From Actinomycetota bacterium (lineage in GTDB: Bacteria > Actinomycetota > Thermoleophilia > Gaiellales > Gaiellaceae), in contig JBKOYZ010000115.1 in NCBI GenBank assembly GCA_046725655.1, forward strand, positions 1 to 53,137: a stretch of 53,137 nt of DNA, in the 5' to 3' direction. The notes beneath the pieces are model-generated. The model was not told the DNA's origin, searched no databases, and worked only from the letters and a program-made list of their open reading frames with translations. The first letter of the stretch is position 1, and every line of letters starts with the position of its first letter. Positions 6,599 to 46,129 of this stretch are shown in pieces. The position numbers and the translations under genes are program-made.

Positions 6599-9361
6599 AT
6601 GACAAATCGCCGCTCGCACCTGATCCTCGTCGGCCTGCTTCTCGCCGCTTTGGCGGGAGTGGCGGCGCTCGCCATCCCGGGCTCGCCGGTGCACAAGAAG
6701 CTGAACCTCGGGCTCGACCTCCAGGGCGGGCTCGAGGTCGTCTACAAGGCGCACCCGCCGAAGGGCGAGAAGGTGACCTCGCAGGGGATGGACCTCTCGG
6801 TCAACCGGATGCGCGACCGCGTCGACAAGCTGGGCGTGTCGGAGCCGGAGATCCGCAAGCAGGGCTCGGACCAGATCGTCATCGAGCTTCCGGGCGTGCA
6901 CGACCCGGGCCGCGCGGCGCAGATCATCGGCACGACGGCCCAGCTCGAGCTCTACGACCTCGAGACCTCGCTCGTGTCGCCCTACTCCGTGTCGGTGACC
7001 GGGACGCCGCAGGCGACCACCGACCTCTACTCGCTGCTGAAGCGCGTGCAGCCACAGGCGGAGAAGGGCACGCCGTCGGCCTTCTACGCGTTCGGGAAGA
7101 CGAAGTCGAAGCCGGTGGGGCCCGCCGACACGAAGGCCGAGGCGCTGAAGCTGGCGCAGGACCAGAAGTTGAAGGAGCCGATCACGGTCCTCGCCGTCCC
7201 CGAGAACATGATCGTGCTCACCTGCGGCCCGAACGAGGTCGTCTGCCCGGGGGACGGCGGCCAGGGAGGCGGGAACACGATCGCTCCGCCCGCCCCGGGG
7301 ACGAGCTACTACTACCTCTTCAAGCACGACAAGGAAGCCGAGGGCATCCCCGGCGTCAAGGGGATCCCGCAGATGACCGGCTCCGACCTGAAGCTCTCCG
7401 GGACGCGCCAGGACTTCGACCCGAGCACGAACGAGCCGGTCGTCCTGATGCAGTTCACGGGCTCCGGCTCCGACAAGTTCCGCCGCGTCACTTCCGAGGA
7501 GTACAACCGCGGCAGGAACCGCAACGAGCCGCAGCACTTCGCGATCGTGCTCGACCGCGAGATCCGCTCGTTCCCGCAGATCGACTACACGAAGTCCGAC
7601 CTCGCGGGCGGCATCAGCGGCAATGCCGAGATCAGCGGCATCAAGTCCCTCAGGGAGGCCAAGGATCTCGCTCTCGTGCTCCAGACCGGCGCGCTTCCCT
7701 ACAGCTTCCAGCAGATCGAACGGACGGACGTCTCCGCCACGCTCGGGAAGGACTCGCTCAAGGAAGCCGAGCGGGCAGCCCTGGTCGGCTTGCTCGTCGT
7801 CGCGCTGTTCCTGCTCGTCCTCTACCGCTTCCTGGGGCTCGTGGCGGTGGTCGGCCTCGGGATCTACGCAGCCCTCCTCTACGCGGCGATCCTGCTCTTC
7901 AACGTCACGCTTACGCTCCCGGGCTTCGCCGGCCTGATCCTGACCATCGGCGTCGCGGCCGATGCGAACGTTGTCGTCTTCGAACGGATCAAGGAAGAAG
8001 TGCGCGCCGGGAAATCCGTGCGCGCGGCGATCGCCGCGGGCTACGCCAAGGGCTTCCACACGATCATCGACGCGAACGTCGTCACCCTGATCACGGCGCT
8101 GGTGCTCTTCGCGGTCGCGACCTCGGGCGTGAAGGGGTTCGCGCTGATGCTGATCATCGGGACGGTCATCTCGCTGATCACCGCGGTCGCGGCGACGCGC
8201 GCGATGCTCGGCCTGCTCTCGGGTTTCTCGTGGTTCGACAACCCGAGCTTCATGGGCGCCTCGCCCCAGCAGCATGGCCGCTGGCTGCAGATCGACTTCA
8301 TGCGCCGCCGCTACCTCTGGTTCGCGATCTCGGGTGCGGTCGTCGCGATCGCGATCGCCGCACTGGGAATCCGCGGCCTCAACCTCGGCATCGACTTCAA
8401 GGGCGGGACGCAGGTCACGTTCAAGACGCCGCAGCCGGTCTCGTTGTCGGACGTCCGCAACCAGGCGAAGCTGATCGGCCAGGGCGACGCGGTCATCCAG
8501 GGCCGCGGCAAGACATTCGGCAGCGACAAGTACGAGAGCTTCCAGATGCGCATGAAGTCGCTCACGGAAGCCAACACGACCAAGCTCGGCGACGACCTGA
8601 AGGGGAAGTACGGCCAGAACCTCTCGTTAAGCGTCAAGAACGTCTCCGCGAGCTTCGGCAGACAGATCGCGCGAGGGGCGATCATCGCGATCATCGTCTC
8701 GCTGCTCCTGATCGTGCTCTACATCGCGATCAGGTTCGACTTCAAGTTCGCGCTGCCGGTGATCGTGGCCTTAGCGCACGACATCGTGATCACCGTGGGC
8801 GTCTACGCCTTGACCGGGAGAGAGGTCTCGAACGCAACCGTCGCGGCGGTTTTGACCGTGCTCGGCTACTCGATCTACGACACGATCATCATCTTCGACC
8901 GCATCCGCGAGAACATCCCGCTCATGCGGCGCTCGTCGTTCGCGACGATCGCCAACGTCTCCCTCTGGGAGACGATCCGCCGCTCACTGGCGACGACGCT
9001 CATCACGCTGCTGCCCGTTCTCTCGCTGCTCCTCTTCGGCGGCGCGACGCTCAAGGACTTCGCCTTTGCGCTCCTGGTCGGGATCGCCTCGGGCGCCTAC
9101 TCGTCGATCTTCATCGCCGCCCCACTGCTGACGATGTGGAAAGAGCGCGAGCCGGAGTTCGCGCGGCGGAAGGACGTCGTCGAGCCGGCAGGCGACGGCC
9201 GCGCCGCGGAGGCGGTGCTCGTCCAGGCCGAGGAGGCCGCGGCGGCCGAGCCGACGCCGGAGCTCTCCCCGGTCACCGCGATCGAGAACGCCGCCGCACA
9301 GGCGAAGCGGGAGCGCCGCCGCCAGCGCCGCCGCGCGCGACCGCATGGCCGAGCGCGGTAG
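6599..9361 (+). CDS. secDF: fused protein-export membrane protein SecDF
   Basis: 920 aa. SecD-like N-terminal TM plus large periplasmic domain plus 5 TM, then a second SecF-like TM/loop/5-TM module (GIDFKGGT), in one ORF. Confidence 0.9.
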   Translation: MTNRRSHLILVGLLLAALAGVAALAIPGSPVHKKLNLGLDLQGGLEVVYKAHPPKGEKVTSQGMDLSVNRMRDRVDKLGVSEPEIRKQGSDQIVIELPGVHDPGRAAQIIGTTAQLELYDLETSLVSPYSVSVTGTPQATTDLYSLLKRVQPQAEKGTPSAFYAFGKTKSKPVGPADTKAEALKLAQDQKLKEPITVLAVPENMIVLTCGPNEVVCPGDGGQGGGNTIAPPAPGTSYYYLFKHDKEAEGIPGVKGIPQMTGSDLKLSGTRQDFDPSTNEPVVLMQFTGSGSDKFRRVTSEEYNRGRNRNEPQHFAIVLDREIRSFPQIDYTKSDLAGGISGNAEISGIKSLREAKDLALVLQTGALPYSFQQIERTDVSATLGKDSLKEAERAALVGLLVVALFLLVLYRFLGLVAVVGLGIYAALLYAAILLFNVTLTLPGFAGLILTIGVAADANVVVFERIKEEVRAGKSVRAAIAAGYAKGFHTIIDANVVTLITALVLFAVATSGVKGFALMLIIGTVISLITAVAATRAMLGLLSGFSWFDNPSFMGASPQQHGRWLQIDFMRRRYLWFAISGAVVAIAIAALGIRGLNLGIDFKGGTQVTFKTPQPVSLSDVRNQAKLIGQGDAVIQGRGKTFGSDKYESFQMRMKSLTEANTTKLGDDLKGKYGQNLSLSVKNVSASFGRQIARGAIIAIIVSLLLIVLYIAIRFDFKFALPVIVALAHDIVITVGVYALTGREVSNATVAAVLTVLGYSIYDTIIIFDRIRENIPLMRRSSFATIANVSLWETIRRSLATTLITLLPVLSLLLFGGATLKDFAFALLVGIASGAYSSIFIAAPLLTMWKEREPEFARRKDVVEPAGDGRAAEAVLVQAEEAAAAEPTPELSPVTAIENAAAQAKRERRRQRRRARPHGRAR

Positions 9362-9662
9362 TAGCGGCCGCCCCGGCGAAGCCGACACGGCCTCTTCTGG
9401 TCGGCGTCGCGAGCGAGCGCCTCAGAACCTCGCGGGCGCCGTCCAGCGGGTCGGGCGGGACGAGCTCCAGGGGGTCGCCGACGACCTCCGCGCTCTCTGG
9501 CGTGGCGACGCCTCGGTCGCCGAACGCACCGCGGCGCGACTCGCCGGCCTCCTCCGCGAGCTCGGGCTCGTGACCCGCGACGAGCTGGAGGAGATGCAGC
9601 TGCGGATCGCCCAGCTGGAGCACCGGCTGCGGCTGCTCGAGGACGGACGACCGCCCTCGTGA
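9345..9662 (+). CDS. small coiled-coil protein, UbiK/BMFP-like C-terminus
   Basis: LGLVTRDELEEMQLRIAQLEHRLRLLE resembles the LxLVSREEFD...LE segment of UbiK/YqiC-type proteins. Overlaps the secDF end; its stop overlaps the plsC GTG. Exact start uncertain. Confidence 0.4.
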   Translation: MAERGSSGRPGEADTASSGRRRERAPQNLAGAVQRVGRDELQGVADDLRALWRGDASVAERTAARLAGLLRELGLVTRDELEEMQLRIAQLEHRLRLLEDGRPPS

Positions 9663-10435
9663 CCCAGCCGCTGACGCGGCTCGGCGTTCCGAAGCTCTGG
9701 GGTGAGGATTCAGAGCGGCTCTACCCGTATGCGCGGCGCGTCGTCCACCCGATCACGCTGTGGCTCGCACCCGCCGCCGCATACGGCGTCGAGCGCATCC
9801 CGCCGGAGGGGACAGGCGCGGTTCTCGCCGCGAATCACTTCTCCGGAATCGACCACCCGCTGATCGGGACCTTCTGTCCGCGGGACATCCACTTCCTGGC
9901 GAAGGCGGAGCTGTTCGAGATCCCGTTCGTCGGCGACATCGTGCAGTGGATCGGCTCGATTCCGATCCGCCGCGGCGAGGGCGACAGGGACGCGCTCCGC
10001 CGCTCGCGCGAGGTCGTCCGCGACGGCGGCATCGTCTGCGTGCACATCGAGGGAACGAGACAGCGGCTCGGCTACCCGGGCCCGATCCACACCGGCGGGC
10101 TGATGATCGCGATGCAGGAAGGCGCCCCGGTCGTCCCGTGCGGCGTCGACACATTCCGCTGGTCGCCGACGAATCGGCGTCTCTGCGCGCTCGTGTTCGG
10201 CGAGCCGCTCGACCTCACACACTTGCCGCGGAACCGCAGCGGGTACGACGAGGCCGCCCACATCCTGAGAGACGAGATGGTGCGATTGTGGCGGCAGGCC
10301 GTGGAGGCGGCCGCCGCGGGGCTGCCTGCGCGGCTGCCGGACGGGACGAGGCGCAGCGGTCCCTTCCTGACCGAACGACGGGCTCAGCCCGCCCCGGCGG
10401 CGGACACGGGCTCGCAGGAACGCGTGTCAGACTGA
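9659..10435 (+). CDS. plsC: 1-acyl-sn-glycerol-3-phosphate acyltransferase family protein
   Basis: HX4D motif NHFSGIDHP, FxxK (FLAKAELF) and EGTR (VHIEGTRQ). Confidence 0.8.
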   Translation: MTQPLTRLGVPKLWGEDSERLYPYARRVVHPITLWLAPAAAYGVERIPPEGTGAVLAANHFSGIDHPLIGTFCPRDIHFLAKAELFEIPFVGDIVQWIGSIPIRRGEGDRDALRRSREVVRDGGIVCVHIEGTRQRLGYPGPIHTGGLMIAMQEGAPVVPCGVDTFRWSPTNRRLCALVFGEPLDLTHLPRNRSGYDEAAHILRDEMVRLWRQAVEAAAAGLPARLPDGTRRSGPFLTERRAQPAPAADTGSQERVSD

Positions 10436-10439
10436 CCGG

Positions 10440-12116
10440 ATGGCCCGCCCGGCCACGCGCAACATCGGCCGCCTCTCGGAGATCGCGCAAGTGGCGGTCA
10501 AGCACGGCTTCGGCTACTTCTTCGAGCGCCACCGGCTGACCGACCTGTTGCCGTGGACGAGCCGGGACGGCGCCGCGGCGGCCGAGGCGGTGTCACCGTC
10601 CGAGCGCGGACGCCATCTGCGGGAGATGCTCGACGAGCTCGGGCCGACCTTCGTCAAGTTCGGACAGCTGCTTTCGACGCGGCCCGACGTCGTGCCGCCG
10701 GACATCGTGATCGAGCTTCAGAAGCTCCAGGACGAGGTGCGACCCGTTCCGTTCGAGGACGTCGAGCGCGTCGTGCGCGAGGAGCTCGGCCTCTCGGTCG
10801 AGCAGGCGTTCCTCGAGTTCGACGAGCGGCCGACGGCGGCAGCGTCCATCGGCCAGGTCCACCACGCGACGCTGCCGAACGGCGAGCGAGTCGCGGTCAA
10901 AGTCCAGCGCCCGAACGCGCCTCGACAGATCGAGGCCGACCTCGCCCTCCTCTACCAGGCAGCCCGTCTGGCCAAGGAGCGCGTTCGCGCGCTCGACTTC
11001 ATCGACGCCGAGCAGCTCGTCGACGAGTTCGCCCGCTCAATCCGGGCCGAGCTCGACTACCGAGCCGAGGCGAGGAACGCCGAGGGCTTTCGCCGCAACT
11101 TCGCCGGCGTGTCGGCGGTGAAGATCCCGCGCGTCTTCTGGAGCTACACACGCCAGCGCCTCCTCGTCCTCGAGCTGCTCGATGGGACGCAGCTCGCCGA
11201 TCTCGACTTCGTCTCGATGACCGAGGAGGAGCGCCGCACGATCGCGTATCGCGTCGCCGAGGCCTGGATGACGATGATCTTCCGGCACGGGTTCTTCCAC
11301 GGCGATCCGCATCCCGCGAACGTGTTCCTGATGGACGGCGGCGAAACGGTCGGCCTCGTCGACTTCGGCCAGGTCGGCAAGCTGACCGAGGACGACATGT
11401 CGAAACTGACGCGGCTCTTCATCGACGCCGCGAGCGAGCGGGTCGATGCGCTGCCGCGCGACCTCGCCGACCTCGGGGTCCGTTACCCGCGCGAGCGCGA
11501 GGACGAGTTCGCCTCCGAGCTGCAAGACTTCTACTACCGCTACTACGGCGTCACGCTCGCGGAGATCGACCCGCTGCAGGTGATCCGCGAGGCGTTCGAC
11601 CTGATCTATTCGCTGAACCTGCGGCTGCCGACGCGCTTCGTCCTGCTGGACAAGGCCATCGCAACTCTCGCTTCGGTCGGCATCGAGCTCTATCCGGACT
11701 TCAACGTCTTCGAGGTCGCGAAGCCGTACGCGCAAGGACTGATGCTCGAGCGCTTCTCGCCGGGACGGGTTCTCTCGCGGGCGCAGAAGCAATCGACGGA
11801 TCTCGCCCGCGTCGTGACGACCATGCCGTTTCAGGTGCACGACTTCCTCGAGGAGATCCGCGATGGCCAGATCGAGGTCGGGTTCGTGCACAAGGGGCTC
11901 GACGAGTTCATGCACAAGGTAGACGTTGCGTTCAACCGCCTGGTCGTCGCCCTCATCGTCGTCGGCGGGCTGATCGGGTCGAGCCTGATCGGGATCTTCG
12001 CGAAGCACGGGCCGTTCGTCTGGGGGGTCAACTTCCTCTCGTTCATCGGCTTCCTGCTCTCCGGCGCGCTCGGCGTCTGGCTGCTCTGGGGCGTCATCCG
12101 CTCGGGGCGCCTCTGA
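10440..12116 (+). CDS. ABC1/UbiB-family atypical protein kinase with C-terminal TM segments
   Basis: FVKFGQLLSTRPD, AAASIGQVHHA, VAVKVQRP, HGDPHPANV, VDFGQVG; two hydrophobic helices at the C-terminus. Confidence 0.85.
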   Translation: MARPATRNIGRLSEIAQVAVKHGFGYFFERHRLTDLLPWTSRDGAAAAEAVSPSERGRHLREMLDELGPTFVKFGQLLSTRPDVVPPDIVIELQKLQDEVRPVPFEDVERVVREELGLSVEQAFLEFDERPTAAASIGQVHHATLPNGERVAVKVQRPNAPRQIEADLALLYQAARLAKERVRALDFIDAEQLVDEFARSIRAELDYRAEARNAEGFRRNFAGVSAVKIPRVFWSYTRQRLLVLELLDGTQLADLDFVSMTEEERRTIAYRVAEAWMTMIFRHGFFHGDPHPANVFLMDGGETVGLVDFGQVGKLTEDDMSKLTRLFIDAASERVDALPRDLADLGVRYPREREDEFASELQDFYYRYYGVTLAEIDPLQVIREAFDLIYSLNLRLPTRFVLLDKAIATLASVGIELYPDFNVFEVAKPYAQGLMLERFSPGRVLSRAQKQSTDLARVVTTMPFQVHDFLEEIRDGQIEVGFVHKGLDEFMHKVDVAFNRLVVALIVVGGLIGSSLIGIFAKHGPFVWGVNFLSFIGFLLSGALGVWLLWGVIRSGRL

Positions 12117-27870: not shown

Positions 27871-29035
27871 GGGCCGCCGGATCTGGTTCGTCGGCATCGG
27901 CGGAGCCGGGCTGTCAGGCTACGCGGTTCTCGCGCGCGCGTGGGGGGCCGAGGTCGGCGGCTGGGATCGCGTGTCGACGCCGTACCTCAGGCAGCTCGAA
28001 GGCGTGGTCGTCGAGCTTGCACGGGAACCGGTTGTCCCGGAGGGCTGGCCGGAGGTCGTCGTCTCGACCGCATACCGCGACCGCGCCCGGGGCAAGCCGC
28101 GGGCCGAGTTCCTCGCCGAACTCGTCTCCCTCCAGCGCTCGATCGTGGTCGCGGGCGCGCACGGGAAGACGACGACCGCGGCCATGATCGCCTTCTGCCT
28201 CGACCGGCTTGGCAACGACCCGTCGTTTCTGATCGGCGGCGAGGTGCCGCAGCTGGGCGGAAACGCTCGCGCCGGGAGCGGGTGGCTCGTCGTCGAAGGC
28301 GACGAGTCCGATCGGACGATCGCGGCTCTTCGGCCGGAGATCGCGGTCGTCACGAACGTCGACCTCGATCACCACAGCGAGTTCGCCGCGCTGGCGGAAG
28401 TCGAGGAGCTGTTCGCGCAGTGGGCCGCCGCGGCGCCGAGGTCGGTGCTGGGGTCGGAGCTCGAGTCCGTCGATCTCGAGCTTGCTATCGCCGGCGAGCA
28501 CAACCGTCGGAATGCGGCCGTGGCGCTGGCGGCGCTCGAGGCGGCGGGCGTCGATCGGGACGAGGCGGCGCAGGTGCTCGTCGGGTTCGAAGGCGCAGGC
28601 CGCCGGCTCGAGGTCCGCGGCCATCCTGGCGGCGTCGATGTGATCGACAGCTACGCGCACCACCCAGCGGAGATCGCAGCAGATCTCGCCGCCGTTCGAG
28701 ACGGCGGGCGCGTCCTCGCGCTCTTCCAGCCGCACCTCTATTCGCGGACGCGGCATCTCGCGAGTGAGCTTGGCGAGGCGCTGGCGGCGGCTGATGTCGT
28801 CGCCGTTACCGAGGTGTACCGGGCGCGCGAGGAGCCCGTCGAGGGCGTGACTGGCAAGTTGGTCGTCGACGCGGTCGTCGAGGCACGCCCCGGGATGGAG
28901 GTGGGGTGGACGCCGGCGGTGAAGGACGGCGCCCGTTTCCTTGCGCGGCGTGCGCGCGCGGGTGACCGCGTGCTGACTCTCGGGGCCGGCGACGTCGATC
29001 GGGCGGTGCCGTTTCTGCTCGAGGCGCTGGCTTGA
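27857..29035 (+). CDS. murC: UDP-N-acetylmuramate--L-alanine ligase (compact, 392 aa)
   Basis: TTG start. FVGIGGAGLSGYA, GAHGKTTTAAM, EGDESD, HNRRNA. Confidence 0.88.
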   Translation: MPPLEGRRIWFVGIGGAGLSGYAVLARAWGAEVGGWDRVSTPYLRQLEGVVVELAREPVVPEGWPEVVVSTAYRDRARGKPRAEFLAELVSLQRSIVVAGAHGKTTTAAMIAFCLDRLGNDPSFLIGGEVPQLGGNARAGSGWLVVEGDESDRTIAALRPEIAVVTNVDLDHHSEFAALAEVEELFAQWAAAAPRSVLGSELESVDLELAIAGEHNRRNAAVALAALEAAGVDRDEAAQVLVGFEGAGRRLEVRGHPGGVDVIDSYAHHPAEIAADLAAVRDGGRVLALFQPHLYSRTRHLASELGEALAAADVVAVTEVYRAREEPVEGVTGKLVVDAVVEARPGMEVGWTPAVKDGARFLARRARAGDRVLTLGAGDVDRAVPFLLEALA

Positions 29036-39916: not shown

Positions 39917-40345
39917 ATGGAGACCGAGCGCGACCTCGTCACGCGGGCGAGCGACCTTCCGCTCCACCCGCAGGACGAGCTCGAGTGCCGGCGCTGCGGG
40001 GTCCACTGCGACAAGGTCGTCTACCCGGCGTCGTGCGTGGAGCGCGGCTGCTCCTTCCTCTATTCGTACGAGGAGTTCGGCCACACCTACGTCGGCTGCA
40101 TGCAGAAGGTCTTCGACGTCGAGATCGACCTCGACCTGCTGCGCGCGGCCGAGGCGTCCGGCGAGTTCGGCGCCGTGAAGGCCGCGCGGAACCCGCTGCC
40201 GATGTGCCGCGTCGAGGTCGAGAGCTGTTACGAGAGCAGGACCGAGGACGTCGGCTGCCTCAACCCCGAGTTCTACGAGCTGCCGGTCGGCGAGCCGACA
40301 TTCCGGGTATTCGCGCAGCTGCGTTCCAGCCTGCCTGACGACTGA
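39917..40345 (+). CDS. Cys-rich conserved hypothetical protein
   Basis: ATG 39917 (METERDL). CRRCGVHC plus further Cys residues. Its last 39 nt are duplicated downstream. Confidence 0.5.
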   Translation: METERDLVTRASDLPLHPQDELECRRCGVHCDKVVYPASCVERGCSFLYSYEEFGHTYVGCMQKVFDVEIDLDLLRAAEASGEFGAVKAARNPLPMCRVEVESCYESRTEDVGCLNPEFYELPVGEPTFRVFAQLRSSLPDD

Positions 40346-40479
40346 ACCGGGATTAGCGGTCGCGCCGCCATGTCGGCGCGACCTCTTAGGCGGCGCCGCA
40401 AGCGACGCCTCGGCGTGTATTCGCGCAGCTGCGCTCCAGCCTGCCTGACGACTGAGCCGGGATGAGCGGTCGCGCCGCC
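40307..40479. repeat. 63-nt direct repeat pair (period 110 nt, 3 mismatches)
   Basis: 40307-40369 and 40417-40479. Each contains GTATTCGCGCAGCTGCGyTCCAGCCTGCCTGACGACTGA plus rCCGGGATkAGCGGTCGCGCCGCC. Confidence 0.85.
40347..40415. repeat. double-hairpin interspersed element, copy A
   Basis: CCGGGATTAGC + 10-bp perfect hairpin (GGTCGCGCCG/CGGCGCGACC) + TCTTAG + second hairpin with GCAAG loop + GGCG. Lies between convergent genes. Confidence 0.7.
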
Positions 40480-40480
40480 T

Positions 40481-41371
40481 TCAAGCAACGCGGCGCTTTC
40501 GCGCCGACCCGCCGCGCCGCTTCTTCGTAGCGCGGGCGTGTAGCTCCTTCAGCTTCCGGACCTCGTCGGCGTCAGGGCCGTGCCCGTCCTTGCCCGGCAC
40601 CTCGAGGAGCGCGGGCAGCCGCTGCAGCTTCGGGTGCGAGAGGAAGACGCCGAGATCCTCCCCGAGCAGACCTGCGCCGATGTTGTCGTGCCGGTCGCGG
40701 TTCGAGCCCAGCGGCGCCTTCGAGTCGTTGACGTGCAAGACGCGGAGGCGGTCGAGCCCGATGGAGGCCTCCACCTCCGCGAGGACGCTGTCGAGCTCCT
40801 TGCGCTTCGTGACGTCGTACCCCGAGGCGTAGAGGTGGCACGAGTCGAGGCAGATGCCGAGCCGCTCGTGTCGCTCGAGTGCCTCGTACAACGCCGCGAG
40901 CTCCTCGATCGAACGCCCGATCGTGTCGCCGGCGCCGGCCGTGTTCTCGATCAGCAGCCACGTCGTCTCGGAGCAGCGCTCGAGCGTCGAGCGCAGCGCC
41001 GGCACGACGCGCTCGAGCGCAGCCTCGAAGCCGGCGCCCTGGTGCGAGCCGACATGGAAGACGACGCCGTCGGCCTCGATCGCACAGGCGACGTCCATCG
41101 TGTTCTGCAACGAGGCGACGGACTTCCCGTACAGCTCGTCGTTCGGGCTCGCGAGGTTGATCAGGTACAGCGCGTGGCAGACGACGCCACCGATCCCGGC
41201 CTCCGCCCGCCGCTCCTTGAACCGCTCGAAGTTCGCCGGATCGTGGTTCGTCGGCCGCCACGCGCGCGGGCTCTGCGTGAAGATCTGGACGGCGTCGCCG
41301 TCCATCGCCTCGATCCGGTCGATCGCGGTGTGAATCCCGCCGGAGGTGGAGACGTGGGCGCCGAGCTGCAC
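40481..41371 (-). CDS. nfo: deoxyribonuclease IV (AP endonuclease, Nfo family)
   Basis: MQLGAHVS, HALYLINLASP, VFHVGSH, LIENTAG, CLDSCHLYASGY, LHVNDSK. Basic C-terminal tail KKRRGGSARKRRVA. Confidence 0.9.
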   Translation of the reverse strand: MQLGAHVSTSGGIHTAIDRIEAMDGDAVQIFTQSPRAWRPTNHDPANFERFKERRAEAGIGGVVCHALYLINLASPNDELYGKSVASLQNTMDVACAIEADGVVFHVGSHQGAGFEAALERVVPALRSTLERCSETTWLLIENTAGAGDTIGRSIEELAALYEALERHERLGICLDSCHLYASGYDVTKRKELDSVLAEVEASIGLDRLRVLHVNDSKAPLGSNRDRHDNIGAGLLGEDLGVFLSHPKLQRLPALLEVPGKDGHGPDADEVRKLKELHARATKKRRGGSARKRRVA

Positions 41372-41381
41372 GAGCCGGACG

Positions 41382-42416
41382 CTAGCGAAGCCACGCCGCG
41401 AGGCCGCGCGCCTCGGCCTCGAGCTCGCGGCGGGTCGTTCGCGGCAGCGGCGCGAAGGATTCGAGCACGATCCGGTGGTCTTTCCGGTGCCACAGGCCGG
41501 CGACGAACCCGTCGGCGAGGAACGTCTGCTGCACGTCGCCGTTCTTGTGGATCACGGTCTTCCGGTACTCGTCCGGCAGCACGCGCGTGCGGTCCTTGTG
41601 CGCGAGCAGGAGCTCATCCCAGCGCGGCAGAAGGCGCGGCGGCGCCGACTCGTCACCCGCCGCGAGCGGCGCGCGCGGGAGGTCGAGCAGCTCGCGGCCG
41701 TGCTCGTCGCGGAGGGAGCGAAGCTCAAGCGCCTCGAACCCGGCCTCGAGGTCGCGGATCGCCACTCCGCTCCACTGCGAGACGTCGCCCCTTGTCGCGG
41801 GCCCGAACGCGGCGAGGTAGCGCCTGATCAGGTGCGCGGCCGCTTCGGGCTGCGACGGCAGCTCGTGCTCCATCGGCCGGTACGTCGGCGAGCCCTGGAA
41901 GTCGTACGCAGCGCATTCCGGCAGCTGCTCGAGCCGCGCCAGCGAGACCACCCACGAATAGGTGCGTAGCTCGTCGTACTCGGTCGTTCGCGAGTGGAAC
42001 CCGAGCGCCTTCATGATCTCCGTGCGCGTCCGCGGCTGCTCGCGCGTCAGGCGGACGACCTTGTCGACCAGCCTGCGCGGCGGCGGCTTCATGCCCCGCA
42101 CCCGGCCGGCCGTCCGCGACTCGCGCACAGCGGCGTCGAAGAACGGGTAGTCGGTTGTGGCGACAAGGTGCATCGTCGCGCGCATCAGCAGCGCCTTGAC
42201 GACGCGCCCCTGAAGAAGCGCCCGCTCGAGCGAGCGGCGCTCGAACCCGTCCAGCCGCGACCAGAGCGCGAGGTACGGCGAGGACGGCAGCTGCGCCTGG
42301 AGCCCCGCCAGCCGCTCGGCGGCGCGCGTCGGAGACAAGCGCGCACGGCGAAGCAGGAGTTGCCGCAAGAGCGTCGTCCGGTTGAGCTCGCGCAGGCTGA
42401 GGACGCGCTCGGCCAC
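41382..42416 (-). CDS. winged-helix DNA glycosylase of the AlkZ/YcaQ (HTH_42/DUF1006) family
   Basis: LNRTTLLRQLLLRR...AGLQAQLPSSPYLALWSRL, typical of the family. Q-A-Q at the position of the catalytic Q-phi-Q/D motif. 10 nt upstream of nfo on the same strand. Confidence 0.7.
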   Translation of the reverse strand: MAERVLSLRELNRTTLLRQLLLRRARLSPTRAAERLAGLQAQLPSSPYLALWSRLDGFERRSLERALLQGRVVKALLMRATMHLVATTDYPFFDAAVRESRTAGRVRGMKPPPRRLVDKVVRLTREQPRTRTEIMKALGFHSRTTEYDELRTYSWVVSLARLEQLPECAAYDFQGSPTYRPMEHELPSQPEAAAHLIRRYLAAFGPATRGDVSQWSGVAIRDLEAGFEALELRSLRDEHGRELLDLPRAPLAAGDESAPPRLLPRWDELLLAHKDRTRVLPDEYRKTVIHKNGDVQQTFLADGFVAGLWHRKDHRIVLESFAPLPRTTRRELEAEARGLAAWLR

Positions 42417-42433
42417 GGCAGTACGCTACTGCC

Positions 42434-43714
42434 GTGGCCGTTCGCGTCCGCTTCGCGCCGAGCCCGACGGGTTACCTGCACATCGGCGGCGCCCGCACGG
42501 CGCTCTTCAACTGGCTCTTCGCCCGCCACGACGGTGGCGAATTCCGTCTGCGGATCGAGAACACGGACACGAGCCGCGAGGTCGCGGAGGCCACGGAGCA
42601 GATCCAGGACTCCCTACGCTGGCTGGGGCTCGACTGGGACGGCGACCTGACGTTTCAGCTGGATCGGATGGAGGACGCGCAGCAGGCGGCGCGACGGCTG
42701 CTCGACGAGGGCAGGGCCTTCGAGGACGAGGGCGCGATTCGCTTCCGCATGCCCGACGAGGGGATCACAGCCTGGGACGACCTCGTGCTCGGGCGGGTCG
42801 AGGTGCCGAACGAGAGGCTCGAGGATGTCGTCCTCGTCCGCTCAGACGGGCGGCCGACGTACAACTTCGTCTCACCGCTCGAGGACGCGCTCGACGGGAT
42901 CACTCACGTGATCCGCGGCCAGGACCACGTCTCGAACACGCCGAAGCAGCTTCGCATCCTCGAGGCGTTGAACGCAGAGCTGCCCGCGTACGCGCACGTG
43001 CCGTTGATCAACGGCCCGGACGGTCGCAAGCTCTCGAAGCGGCGGCACGAGACCGTCGCGGTCGAGGACTTCCGCCGGGAGGGGTACATCCCGGAGGCGC
43101 TCTTCAACTTCCTCCCCCTGCTCGGGTGGAGCTACGACGACCGCACGGAGCTGATGACGCGCGAGGAGCTGGTCGAGCGCTTCTCGCTGGAGCGCGTCGG
43201 CAAGAGCGCCGCGATCTTCGACTACGAGAAGCTGAAGCACATGAACGGGGTCTACCTGCGAGCATTGCCTCCGGACGAGTACGCCGACCGGCTGGTCGCC
43301 TACCTCCGCGAGCAGGGCTACGACTGGGACGAGAGCGTGATCCGGAGAGTGGCGCCGCTCGTGCAAGAGAAGATCGCCACGTTCGGCGAGTTCCCGAGCT
43401 TCGCAGGCTTCTTCTTCGAGCGCGTCCCGCCCGCGGAGCTCGAGGACGGACGCGTCATCCCCGCGGCCGTCGAGACGCTGGCCGCCGTCGAGCCGTTCGA
43501 GGCGGCGGAGATCGAGTCGGCGTTACGGGCGCTCGCGGAGCGCCTCGGACTCAAGCCGCGGCAGGCGTTTCAGCCGATCCGTCTCGCCTTGACCGGGTCC
43601 TCCGTGTCGCCGGGTCTCTTCGAGAGTCTGGAGGTGCTCGGGAAGGAGGAGTCGCTGGCGCGGATCGCCGCAGGCAGCGGCCTCGGCGGCGCGAGCGGGT
43701 CGAGCGCGAGCTGA
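42434..43714 (+). CDS. gltX: glutamate--tRNA ligase
   Basis: FAPSPTGYLHIGGARTA (HIGH), KLSKR (KMSKS), C-terminal RLALTGSSVSPGLFESLEVLGKEE. GTG start 17 nt from the divergent gene. Confidence 0.95.
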   Translation: MAVRVRFAPSPTGYLHIGGARTALFNWLFARHDGGEFRLRIENTDTSREVAEATEQIQDSLRWLGLDWDGDLTFQLDRMEDAQQAARRLLDEGRAFEDEGAIRFRMPDEGITAWDDLVLGRVEVPNERLEDVVLVRSDGRPTYNFVSPLEDALDGITHVIRGQDHVSNTPKQLRILEALNAELPAYAHVPLINGPDGRKLSKRRHETVAVEDFRREGYIPEALFNFLPLLGWSYDDRTELMTREELVERFSLERVGKSAAIFDYEKLKHMNGVYLRALPPDEYADRLVAYLREQGYDWDESVIRRVAPLVQEKIATFGEFPSFAGFFFERVPPAELEDGRVIPAAVETLAAVEPFEAAEIESALRALAERLGLKPRQAFQPIRLALTGSSVSPGLFESLEVLGKEESLARIAAGSGLGGASGSSAS

Positions 43715-44504: not shown

Positions 44505-46016
44505 ATGAGCGTCACGGCAGTCCGCACGCCTGCGGAATACGAATCCGAGCTCCGCCGCTATCTGTACGAGCGGTCCGAGGAGGGCCGGGCCGTGCGCGTG
44601 GGTGAAAAGGAGGTCTCGGAGCGCGCCGAGATCGTCGCCCGATACCGCGATCTCTTCTCCCGCGAGCAGGTGGACGCGCTGCGATCCGCCGAGGAGGAGG
44701 CCACCGAAGCGGGCGAGCGGGAGCGGCTCTACCGGCTGCGCAAGACCTGTGAAGGCGGCATCGTCGCCGCTGAGCTCGCCGAGCGGGAAGACGCGCTGGA
44801 GAACGCGATTCTCGCCGCGCGCGTCAGCTTCGAGGACGAGGAGCTCCCGCTCCGCTCGGCGCAGGCTCGGCTGGCCGTCCTCCCGGACTACGGCAGGCGC
44901 GAACAGCTCGGCACGCTGAGCGCCGACCGCTCGGCGCAGTTCAACGACGAGCGGCTCGACGTTCTGCGCGCCGGCGAAGAGCTTGAGGCGGAGATCTCCG
45001 GTGAGCCCGGGCCGGTCGCGCGCAACGAGGAGGAGAAGGGAATCTCGCTCCGGGAGCTCGAGTCCGCCCTCGCTCAGGTCAGCGAGCGCTCGACGAGCGC
45101 GTACGTCGTGCTCCGCGACCGCTGGTTCGAGGGGCTGCTCGGGCCCGAGCGCGACGAGGTGCCGTCGTCGTACCACGTCGCTTACCTTCGGCGCCTTTCG
45201 CCGCTCGAGTCGACGTACACGAAGGACCGCGCGGTCGAGGTCTGCATGGATACGGTGAAGCGGCTCGGCTTCGACCTGGAAAAGGAGCCGAACGTGCGGC
45301 TCGATCTCGACGACCGGCCGCAGAAGTCGCCGCGCGCCTGTGTGATTCCGTCCGACCCGCCGACCGTCGTCCACCTGATCACGCGGGCCCAGGGTGGCCT
45401 CCACGACTACCAGGCATTCCTGCACGAGGCCGGGCACGCGCTCCACTACGCCGGCTGCGACCCGGGTCTGCCGTACACCTTCCGGAACCTCTCGCGCGAT
45501 CACGCGCTGACCGAGATCTACTCGTACATCTTCGAGGCGATCACGCGGGAGCCGGAATGGCACGCACACTACTTCGGCCTCTCCGACGACGAAGCCGAGC
45601 GAAACGCGGAGGCGACCACCTTCCTGGAGGCGCTGCTGTATCGGCGCTACACCGCGAAGCTGCAGTTCGAGCTCGACTTCTGGTCACGCTTCAACGAGGA
45701 CGGCGGCAGCGCGGACGGCTACGCCGAGCGTCTGACGGAGGCGGCGGGCGTCAAGTACCGGCCCGACGGCTACCTCGCCGACATGGATGCCGGGTTCTAC
45801 TCGGCGGACTACCTGCGCGCGTGGATCCGCTCGGCCCAGCTGCGTGACCACCTCGTGCGCGAGGTCGGGGACGACTGGTGGCGGAACGCCGAGACGGGCG
45901 AGCGCCTGCGCACGCTCTTCGCCGAGGGAACGCAACCCTCGAGCGAGGAGGTCGCGGCACGCCTCGGCTATCAGCCGCTGGATACCGGGCCTCTGGTCCG
46001 AGAACTCGGCGCCTAA
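44505..46016 (+). CDS. zinc metallopeptidase, M3 (oligoendopeptidase F)-like
   Basis: HEAGHALHY HExxH motif, with a downstream Glu in LTEIYSYIFE at M3-like spacing. Confidence 0.55.
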   Translation: MSVTAVRTPAEYESELRRYLYERSEEGRAVRVGEKEVSERAEIVARYRDLFSREQVDALRSAEEEATEAGERERLYRLRKTCEGGIVAAELAEREDALENAILAARVSFEDEELPLRSAQARLAVLPDYGRREQLGTLSADRSAQFNDERLDVLRAGEELEAEISGEPGPVARNEEEKGISLRELESALAQVSERSTSAYVVLRDRWFEGLLGPERDEVPSSYHVAYLRRLSPLESTYTKDRAVEVCMDTVKRLGFDLEKEPNVRLDLDDRPQKSPRACVIPSDPPTVVHLITRAQGGLHDYQAFLHEAGHALHYAGCDPGLPYTFRNLSRDHALTEIYSYIFEAITREPEWHAHYFGLSDDEAERNAEATTFLEALLYRRYTAKLQFELDFWSRFNEDGGSADGYAERLTEAAGVKYRPDGYLADMDAGFYSADYLRAWIRSAQLRDHLVREVGDDWWRNAETGERLRTLFAEGTQPSSEEVAARLGYQPLDTGPLVRELGA

Positions 46017-46040
46017 GTCGCACCTGTGAGGCAAGTCCGA

Positions 46041-46109
46041 CCGGGATTAGCGGCCGCGACGGCAAGCCGCCACGGCCTCTTAGTCGGCACCGCAAGAGGT
46101 GCCGAGGCG
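46041..46109. repeat. double-hairpin interspersed element, copy B
   Basis: CCGGGATTAGC + imperfect 11-bp hairpin + TCTTAG + TCGGCACC-gcaaga-GGTGCCGA + GGCG. Lies between convergent genes. Confidence 0.7.
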
Positions 46110-46129
46110 AACTCGGCGCCTAGCTGCGC

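Follow-up and report, generated by a model that had tools for sequence, protein, structure and literature searches.

Two short stretches of G+C-rich DNA, each able to fold into a pair of hairpins and each placed between convergent genes, raise the question of whether the 53,137-nt stretch analyzed here (the window) carries a structured RNA, a terminator or a small mobile repeat. Both copies of the ~69-nt double-hairpin element described in an earlier note were confirmed: copy A (40347..40414, + strand, the E(+) orientation; covariance-model match of 89.5 bits at 40345-40416) lies between a convergent Cys-rich gene and nfo, and copy B (46041..46108, + strand; 81.3 bits at 46039-46110) between convergent genes for an M3-like peptidase and a small membrane protein, as the note had stated. 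The two copies of the element, which we call E, align without gaps at 79% identity across 70 nt, and a search for the composite pattern CCGGGATNAGC-N18-40-CTCTTAG gave exactly two hits in the window and none in 100 dinucleotide-preserving shuffles.

In copy A, the 5′ motif CCGGGATTAGCGG (40347-40359, + strand) leads into hairpin 1 (40358-40383, + strand), and the inter-hairpin motif CCTCTTAG (40382-40389, + strand) is followed by hairpin 2 (40392-40409, + strand) and a tail TCGG(C) at 40410-40414. Copy B, also on the + strand, has its hairpin 1 at 46052-46077, CCTCTTAG at 46076-46083 and hairpin 2 at ~46085-46104. The pairing claimed for hairpin 1 was reproduced, with a perfect 10-bp stem in copy A (40358-40367 with 40374-40383) and 9/11 positions paired in copy B, where both mismatches are A.C and become G.U on the opposite strand. 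Hairpin 2 has a stem of 7 bp closed by a CAAG loop; copy A pairs 6/7 of its positions on the + strand and 7/7 on the − strand. The 3′ GGCG that had been listed as conserved is not kept family-wide, the consensus 3′ of hairpin 2 being K-C-R-G.

The count of two copies was correct as far as A and B are concerned but incomplete. A third, more diverged copy (9353..9428, + strand; 43.7 bits, E-value about 1e-10) lies directly 3′ of secDF, and no flank duplication is recognizable there. A second-element remnant, E′ (CCGGGATGAGCGGTCGCGCCGCC, comprising the 5′ motif and the 5′ arm of hairpin 1; 40456..40479, + strand; weak match of 16.9 bits at 40455-40525), adjoins the nfo stop codon (40481-40483), and it is the sole element sequence remaining at the Cys-rich gene/nfo site in relatives L022 and L027-L029, which are 97-98% identical. 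Elsewhere in the window, positions 28332-28397 gave a weak covariance-model match (21.2 bits, rough E-value 4e-4, filters off), which is either a badly decayed copy or chance. Separately, a near-perfect inverted repeat (42401-42449; 23-nt arms, 91% complementary, 3-nt spacer) is located at the 17-nt gap between the divergent AlkZ-like (41382-42416, − strand) and glutamyl-tRNA synthetase-like (42434-43714, + strand) genes, and could be an operator.

We surveyed other contigs with a covariance model made from 14 copies, which then found additional, more diverged copies, and with pattern scans. Family E was located at ~22 independent loci, represented by 29 distinct sequences, in Gaiellaceae-type contigs of soil origin; the host assignment to Gaiellaceae was made by contig names and by the names on homologues of window proteins. 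A scan of species-representative genomes returned a Gaiellaceae MAG contig (L001) with two tandem copies, and a looser-pattern metagenome scan returned 20 loci, 15 of them true E members. The interspersed family proposed in the note extends well beyond the two original copies, the third window copy being among these ~22 loci. E occurs three times in the 53-kb window and once per 21.5 kb in contigs picked regardless of the element (L030, L031), contig densities that extrapolate to 100-200 copies per genome, and contig L008 holds six copies within 12.7 kb. Near-identical copies of a GAGTGAATC-loop subfamily are present at at least eight unrelated loci.

Two further repeat patterns were seen in these contigs. 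The L008 copies at 10430-10500, 11747-11817 and 11853-11923, 1.3 kb apart, carry a private hairpin 1 sequence (GGCCGGCCGAGTGAATCGGCCG…) that is absent from other loci, which suggests local hopping or gene conversion among neighboring copies. A different palindromic repeat, containing GGGGCTGTCCCC/GGGGACTGTCCC/GGGGACAGTCCCC several times, is found 3′ of the element array in L001 (265-350) and may be a second small repeat family of these organisms.

The earlier note did not recognize a named family, and family E is indeed absent from Rfam: release 15 gave no match across the whole window at gathering thresholds, and at E-value ≤ 10 over 40200-40600 the best matches scored 7.8-17.4 bits, far below the gathering cut-offs of 37-124 bits. 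A known RNA family was thereby ruled out, as was a viral origin, since viral contigs contained no match. Its position at gene ends and its duplication of 25-76 bases of the landing site, described below, suggest an undescribed REP/MITE-like small mobile element rather than a known RNA.

We then examined the conservation of the fold. E is ~70 nt long and consists of two G+C-rich hairpins, hairpin 1 of 25-27 nt and hairpin 2 of 18 nt; TTAG precedes each stem on the + strand (ATTAGC, CTTAG), and CTAA follows each stem on the − strand. In the 14-copy alignment, 98.1% of the cells at 19 pairs were paired, and nine pairs had changed on both sides. None of 500 shuffles reached any observed covariation measure, and pairing dropped to 24-53% when the registers were slid by 1-3 columns. 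The stem covariation first suggested by copies A and B is thus borne out in the 14-copy alignment and by its comparison with shuffles. Hairpin 1 varies freely with compensation, and hairpin 2 is nearly invariant (− strand GGCRTCG-CTTG-CGAYGCC, with a CUUG-type tetraloop); together with the AGAGG motif, it remains nearly invariant across all 29 copies, old ones included. RNAalifold additionally predicted a closing helix joining the element ends, which was kept out of the model because its 3′ partner is an invariant CCGG plus flank and its 5′ side does not covary. Small ORFs in the unit were likewise rejected, as the ATG in the hairpin 1 loop of copy A and the ATG in the L001 unit are not kept elsewhere.

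The two strands are not equivalent in this respect. Over the 29 distinct copies, the − strand showed 490 Watson-Crick, 34 G.U and 19 mismatched cells, compared with 490, 6 and 47 for the + strand; the G.U pairs of the − strand are distributed over ten pair positions, and the − strand folded better by 4-11 kcal/mol in three copies. The pairing-preserving strand is therefore the minus strand, and not the + strand on which the structure had initially been drawn. Since wobble pairs are almost confined to it, the relevant single-stranded form has minus polarity. Judged from the pairing pattern, this form could be either RNA or ssDNA; ssDNA hairpins tolerate G.T, and the strand bias does not require RNA.

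The suggestion of a terminator cassette did not find support. A consensus scan found no terminator-like site at copy A or copy B on either strand, and a T-run or U-tract 3′ of E is absent for every copy, the sequences after the stems being TCTTAGG and TCGGCG on the + strand and CUAAGAGG and CUAAUCCCGG on the − strand. A classical intrinsic terminator was thus ruled out, the hairpins having no T-run.

The feature that sets E apart lies outside the hairpins: E is flanked by a direct duplication of its own upstream flank, in the layout X-E-X′. At copy A, X is the final stretch of the Cys-rich gene, 13 codons and the TGA (RVFAQLRSSLPDD*; 40304..40345, + strand), and serves as the functional copy of the duplicated target, and the second gene-end copy, X′ (40414..40455, + strand), begins right after the 3′ end of the element. 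X′ differs from X at 3/42 bases; both differences inside codons are synonymous, and the TGA is retained. The full repeat (40304-40369 versus 40414-40479) spans 66 nt at 94% identity with a spacing of 110 nt, and includes the first 24 nt of the element, giving the site order gene-X-E-X′-E′(remnant)-nfo. The ~69-nt element of the earlier note is real, but copy A lies within a 110-nt tandem repeat whose unit takes in the last part of the Cys-rich gene as well. The oldest gene-end copy, X″ (TTTCGCGCCGACCCGCCGCGCCGCTTCTTCGTAG; 40497..40530, + strand), now forms the nfo C-terminal tail on the − strand; it is homologous to the gene-overlap region of element-free relatives, and the right flank of the window aligns to L031 from ~position 27. 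The difference between the window and its 97-98% relatives (L022, L027-L029) is exactly one 110-nt unit. Unequal crossover between X and X″ was rejected as the source of this unit, because the junction lies at the exact 3′ end of the element, outside the 25-nt homology. A SECIS element or readthrough at the TGA that precedes copy A was also rejected, as 110 nt does not make a whole number of codons and E stands in different frames relative to X′ at A, B and L001.

At copy B, X consists of the peptidase gene end (…RELGA*, TAA 46014-46016) and 24 nt of 3′ flank (46000..46040, + strand), and X′/X″ is represented by GCGAACTCGGCGCCTAG (46107..46123, + strand), which repeats the end of the peptidase gene and contains a stop in frame. 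The layout is clearer in the 97% relatives L027 and L028 (X-E-X′-X″), where 27 additional bases provide an X′ of 30 nt plus X″; the window lost these 27 nt via a deletion between 10-nt TCGGCGCCTA repeats.

Across loci, X′ starts exactly at the 3′ end of E, with no microhomology at the E 3′/X′ junction in six young events, whereas X ends 0-30 nt ahead of the 5′ end of E, with 0-29 nt of filler in between (for example TGCAAA, CACAAG or CAAGTCCGA). Flank-to-flank similarity ranked in the top 0.55% of 2000 random controls at 9/22 loci. Significant duplication was found for 8/13 copies scoring at least 78 bits and for 1/9 weaker copies, the pattern expected if the duplication formed with insertion and then decayed; four or five high-scoring copies are without a clear duplication. 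The duplicated length ranges over ~19-76 nt: ~19-35 nt at L008, 25 nt at the Cys-rich gene/nfo site, 33-45 nt at most loci and 70-76 nt at a thiolase locus. Measured from start to start, the unit is 106-116 nt long at eight loci; the thiolase locus, with 144 nt, has a longer one. Tandem arrays comprise 1.5 units at copy A and two units in L001, L008 and L013. The duplicated piece is not always a gene end, since at the tRNA-Pro(GGG) locus it consists of the 23-nt upstream spacer and the first 19 nt of the tRNA. In this setting (L013 1-246, L007 424-594) the element lies 23-26 nt upstream of tRNA-Pro(GGG), co-oriented with it on the minus-polarity strand, and the 5′ end of the tRNA recurs, cut down to 19 nt, in every unit of the array.

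We next compared orthologous sites, which were retrieved via the two flanking proteins from relatives 86-98% identical in those proteins. The element-free relatives L030, L031 and L040 have the Cys-rich gene and nfo on opposite strands, with an overlap of ~83 nt between them. When filled sites (L023, L039 and the window) are set against the empty site, the left flank aligns up to ~position 55 and the right flank from ~27-33, and these overlapping alignments indicate that ~25 nt of target is present on both sides. The strand antisense to the old Cys-rich gene end encodes the basic tail at the C-terminus of nfo (window 40481-40535 versus L031 6514-6596). The right target copy still codes for this tail on the opposite strand; the left copy, which now ends the Cys-rich gene, has drifted from …AQIRPAASS* to …AQLRPKPA* or …AQLRSSLPDD*. 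In L023, the element exactly spans the gap between the stops, with the Cys-rich TGA in the 5′ motif and the nfo stop being the TCA of the terminal TCAG.

A second polymorphic site was found between the HAD and Cys-rich genes, where L024-L026 carry a 103-nt insertion (the element plus a decayed HAD gene-end copy) that is absent from the window, L023, L027, L030 and L031. Arrival of the element with foreign DNA at a recombination breakpoint was rejected for the L024 insertion, as identity to L031 is ~92% on both sides. Flank duplication (25-76 nt of target) and presence/absence polymorphism together point to a mobile element over a conserved regulatory RNA; the earlier note had overlooked both features. 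At the Cys-rich gene/nfo junction, L024 (2400-2460) has a different, 57-nt insertion consisting of a second TTCCGGGTYTTCGC copy, CTTAG and the 10-nt palindrome TCGGCGCCGA, which may be a collapsed single-hairpin remnant of the element. The same segment also contains CTAATCCCG on the + strand; elsewhere this is the minus-strand form of the 5′ motif, which is thus inverted here.

Gene positions around the copies were determined by a crude GC3-based gene call plus manual inspection. The 5′ end of E(+) lies at most 45 nt from the 3′ end of a co-oriented gene at 13 loci, and at most remaining loci the other end of E adjoins the 3′ end of an opposite-strand gene. The terminal motifs hold stops in both directions (TAG in GATTAGC and, on the other strand, TGA in CTGAGG), and neighboring genes often use them: the secDF stop TAG (9359-9361) is inside the 5′ motif of the third window copy, and stop codons inside E were also found in L006 (TAG of GATTAGC, used by the upstream ORF), L002, L023 and L039. 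GTAG-tagged REP ends similarly often supply TAG stops to flanking ORFs (PMC3733652).

The displaced gene-end copies keep their reading frame and a stop codon within it. In nine comparisons of X/X′ pairs (window 40304-40455 and L001, L011, L016, L027, L030), we counted 15 synonymous, 5 non-synonymous and 3 stop-to-stop codon changes; of the five non-synonymous changes, three lay within three codons of the element, two of them affecting the first codon beside it and one the third codon. The synonymous share expected under free drift since duplication is ~43% (P about 0.004). From the pattern of changes, the simplest reading of this frame retention is gene flow, whereby element-free alleles would keep overwriting X′ by recombination; an alternative cause would be exchange within (X-E)n arrays. 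A diversity-generating retroelement was rejected, since the differences between X and X′ are not adenine-specific and no reverse transcriptase is present in the contigs examined.

The reading that we favor, at a probability of roughly 60%, is that E is a REP/BIME-like non-autonomous mobile repeat of Gaiellaceae with unusually long and variable target duplications. The preference of the earlier note for a REP/MITE-like cassette over random GC-rich spacer holds. E would land at gene 3′ ends and at junctions where genes are tightly packed or overlap, and its arrival would leave 25-76 bp of target on either side, an arrangement (X-E-X′) through which both neighboring genes keep complete ends and overlapping genes become separated. 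The element is probably recognized or copied as a minus-polarity single strand, ssDNA or RNA, and mobilized in trans by an enzyme not encoded in the window. Arrays of the form (X-E)n, of which copy A with its 1.5 units is one, may subsequently grow and shrink through the X repeats, and the hairpins of an inserted E may form a barrier where genes end without being a terminator of the classical type.

Three candidate routes could produce this footprint. The first is an HUH/RAYT-like ssDNA route: the CTAA after each minus-strand hairpin, if cut between C and T, would recall TnpA-REP, which cleaves between C and T (PMC8266576). The second is target-primed or template-switch copying of a minus-strand RNA, and the third a transposase making very long staggered cuts. 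We saw no transposase, RAYT or reverse transcriptase among the annotated syntenic contigs or the 20 window proteins scanned, the other window proteins being judged by synteny, and no RAYT among the annotated genes of L022-L041. The L008 copy cluster contained none of the three either, its neighbors being, by translation, a DksA-like gene, lspA and rluD, and a REPtron at the inverted copy pair in L008 was rejected because the enclosed gene is lspA and not a RAYT. Terminal inverted repeats are absent from E, whose 5′ end (CCGGGATTAGC) and 3′ end (...GCCKCRG) are not inverted copies of each other. To our knowledge, no bacterial transposon produces duplications as long and variable as those of E, and full-text literature searches turned up no account of repeats in Gaiella or of a bacterial element that duplicates its target in this way. 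The junctions, precise on the 3′ side but uneven and filler-containing on the 5′ side, tip toward a copying mechanism, as does the spread of duplication lengths; we nevertheless hold its probability low, since no reverse transcriptase was seen and E has no tail. It is a tentative and rather improbable refinement that E spreads by copying a single-stranded minus-polarity template (RNA or excised ssDNA) into gene junctions, leaving target duplications of 25-76 bp.

SINE-like retroposition or template switching, as a rival reading, is unlikely. It would have a discrete minus-strand RNA, processed from the 3′ UTRs of convergent genes or from tRNA leaders, copied at a DNA 3′ end, with a nick or fork 3′ end as primer and synthesis resuming 25-76 nt back to yield the long, variable duplication. 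Duplications of this kind are typical of target-primed copying rather than of transposases, and the asymmetric junctions, the one-strand pairing with G.U tolerated (as expected of an RNA template) and a minus strand co-oriented with a gene upstream of it at many loci, and with tRNA-Pro at two, all agree with it. Against it stand the want of a reverse transcriptase near any copy in the annotated syntenic contigs, the L008 cluster or the 20 window proteins, the lack of a tail or poly-A-like 3′ end and of junctional microhomology in the young events, and the wobble tolerance of ssDNA hairpins; we also know of no bacterial precedent.

Quite unlikely, too, is an immobile host signal, a cis-acting RNA or DNA feature at gene ends (a 3′-end stabilizer, a U-tract-less terminator or insulator, or a protein-binding site) selected locus by locus, with the flank duplications as secondary rearrangements. 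Such a signal would fit the near-invariance of hairpin 2 and AGAGG in 29/29 copies while hairpin 1 covaries, the invariable placement at gene boundaries, and the presence of E at the same position in genomes 8-14% different at the Cys-rich gene/nfo, thiolase, tRNA-Pro and AAAH* gene loci. It does not fit the near-identical GAGTGAATC-loop copies at unrelated loci, the clear empty sites in relatives, duplications that go with better-preserved copies and fade in diverged ones, or the missing U-tract. Orientation is also mismatched, as most copies are placed such that read-through from the upstream gene would transcribe the + strand and not the pairing-keeping strand, a mismatch that counts against the favored reading too. 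At the thiolase locus, about 13% of positions differ in the adjoining coding sequence and about 7% in E; this slower divergence, together with the near-invariant hairpin 2 and AGAGG, suggests some host-level function or homogenization, so that the mobile repeat would not be purely selfish.

Replication slippage alone, in which hairpins stall replication to give local tandem duplications and the likeness between loci reflects convergent G+C-rich palindromes, is very improbable: it could have made the window's own 110-nt repeat, tandem arrays exist at copy A, L001, L008 and L013, and the 27-nt deletion between 10-nt repeats at copy B shows slippage active at such sites, but it appears close to refuted by the unpaired 11-13-nt motifs common to ~22 loci, and cannot account for insertions of element plus duplication at sites empty in relatives.

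For a mobile repeat of this kind, the footprints matter beyond this contig. How REP-type palindromic repeats spread is an unsolved question (PMC8266576), and the footprints of family E make it testable, since exact ends, long duplications, (X-E)n arrays and pairs of empty and filled sites allow the insertion chemistry to be inferred and tested. E also remodels genes in a compact genome: it separates the overlapping convergent Cys-rich gene and nfo, donates stop codons, alters C-termini (…AQIRPAASS* to …AQLRSSLPDD*) and leaves gene ends and the 5′ end of a tRNA behind as silent copies. In practical terms, gene callers can extend ORFs into E arrays, and such arrays may break metagenome assemblies, given that contig L001 starts inside one. 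If the template-copying reading is true, no small bacterial element before E would have been shown to spread that way, the 25-76-bp target duplications left by E insertions would pull overlapping genes apart and give them new stops, and the family would provide a natural record of REP-type dissemination.

Among known systems, the closest are the REP/BIME repeats (E. coli REP, Stenotrophomonas SMAG), GTAG- or CGTC-tagged repetitive extragenic palindromes that are thought to be mobilized by RAYT/TnpA-REP; the gene for RAYT (a Y1 HUH TnpA-REP) is typically flanked by REPs, forming a REPtron. E shares with them short, G+C-rich imperfect palindromes with a conserved tetranucleotide beside each stem, and an extragenic position, often between convergent genes, with ends that often supply stops to neighbors. 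REPs are present in many copies per genome, often above 100, a number that E would match if the extrapolation from contig densities holds. REP palindromes are G+C-rich stem-loops of 20-40 nt, and the hairpins of E, at 25-27 nt and 18 nt, are comparable structures that both covary. REPs carry the conserved GTAG or CGTC at one end (PMC3733652) and are recognized strand-specifically in single-stranded form (PMC8266576). In E, by contrast, the tag is TTAG, analogous in position only; two unlike hairpins, both facing the same way, are joined by a fixed linker and accompanied by an additional 5′ motif (CCGGGA), where REPs use inverted doublets; and the host is an actinobacterial lineage (Gaiellaceae), with no RAYT found in the contigs examined. 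Target duplications of 25-76 bp at insertions, as seen for E, are not reported for REPs in PMC3733652 or PMC8266576, the only duplication mentioned in the latter being gene duplication rates.

With MITEs (Correia/CREE, ERIC, RUP, BOX, IS-derived), E has in common that it is small, non-coding, interspersed, foldable and near gene ends, that it changes C-termini or supplies stops, and that it is polymorphic for presence. In MITEs, the ends are inverted repeats matching those of a parent IS, and the parent transposase fixes the target duplication at a short length of 2-10 bp, whereas E is without such repeats and its duplications are long and vary by locus (~19-35, 25, 33-45 and 70-76 nt). Long staggered cuts are possible in bacteria, as seen in the IS1202 group (ISNCY), whose direct target repeats of ~24-29 bp come close to the ~25-nt duplication at the Cys-rich gene/nfo site. 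Members of that group are 1.3-2 kb long and carry inverted repeats along with a DDE transposase, and the length of their target repeat varies rather little; E measures 70 nt and is without inverted repeats, and duplications as long as 42 and 76 nt accompany it.

Eukaryotic SINEs resemble E in footprint only: both are small, structured, non-autonomous units flanked by duplications of variable length up to tens of bases, with one exact and one ragged junction, but E is bacterial and without a known reverse transcriptase partner, tail or internal promoter. Phage 21 and e14 in E. coli icd are integrative elements that bring a replacement 3′ end for the target gene; they are kilobase-sized, encode an integrase and use one fixed site. 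As with E, the gene end is then present twice, the displaced copy differing mostly at synonymous sites (15 versus 5 changes in E), but one and the same 70-nt E occurs beside the ends of many different genes, and also beside the 5′ end of a tRNA. Integron attC sites have inverted core sites, R″ (RYYYAAC) and R′ (GTTRRRY), that pair across a variable center; an attC site was ruled out, as the two TTAG motifs of E are in direct orientation, each preceding its own hairpin. E thus works like a REP/BIME yet lacks the defining tag, falls outside the definition of a MITE and is not a classical terminator. As a small interspersed palindromic repeat it is ordinary in kind; what makes it stand out is the length of its target duplications and what it does to overlapping genes.
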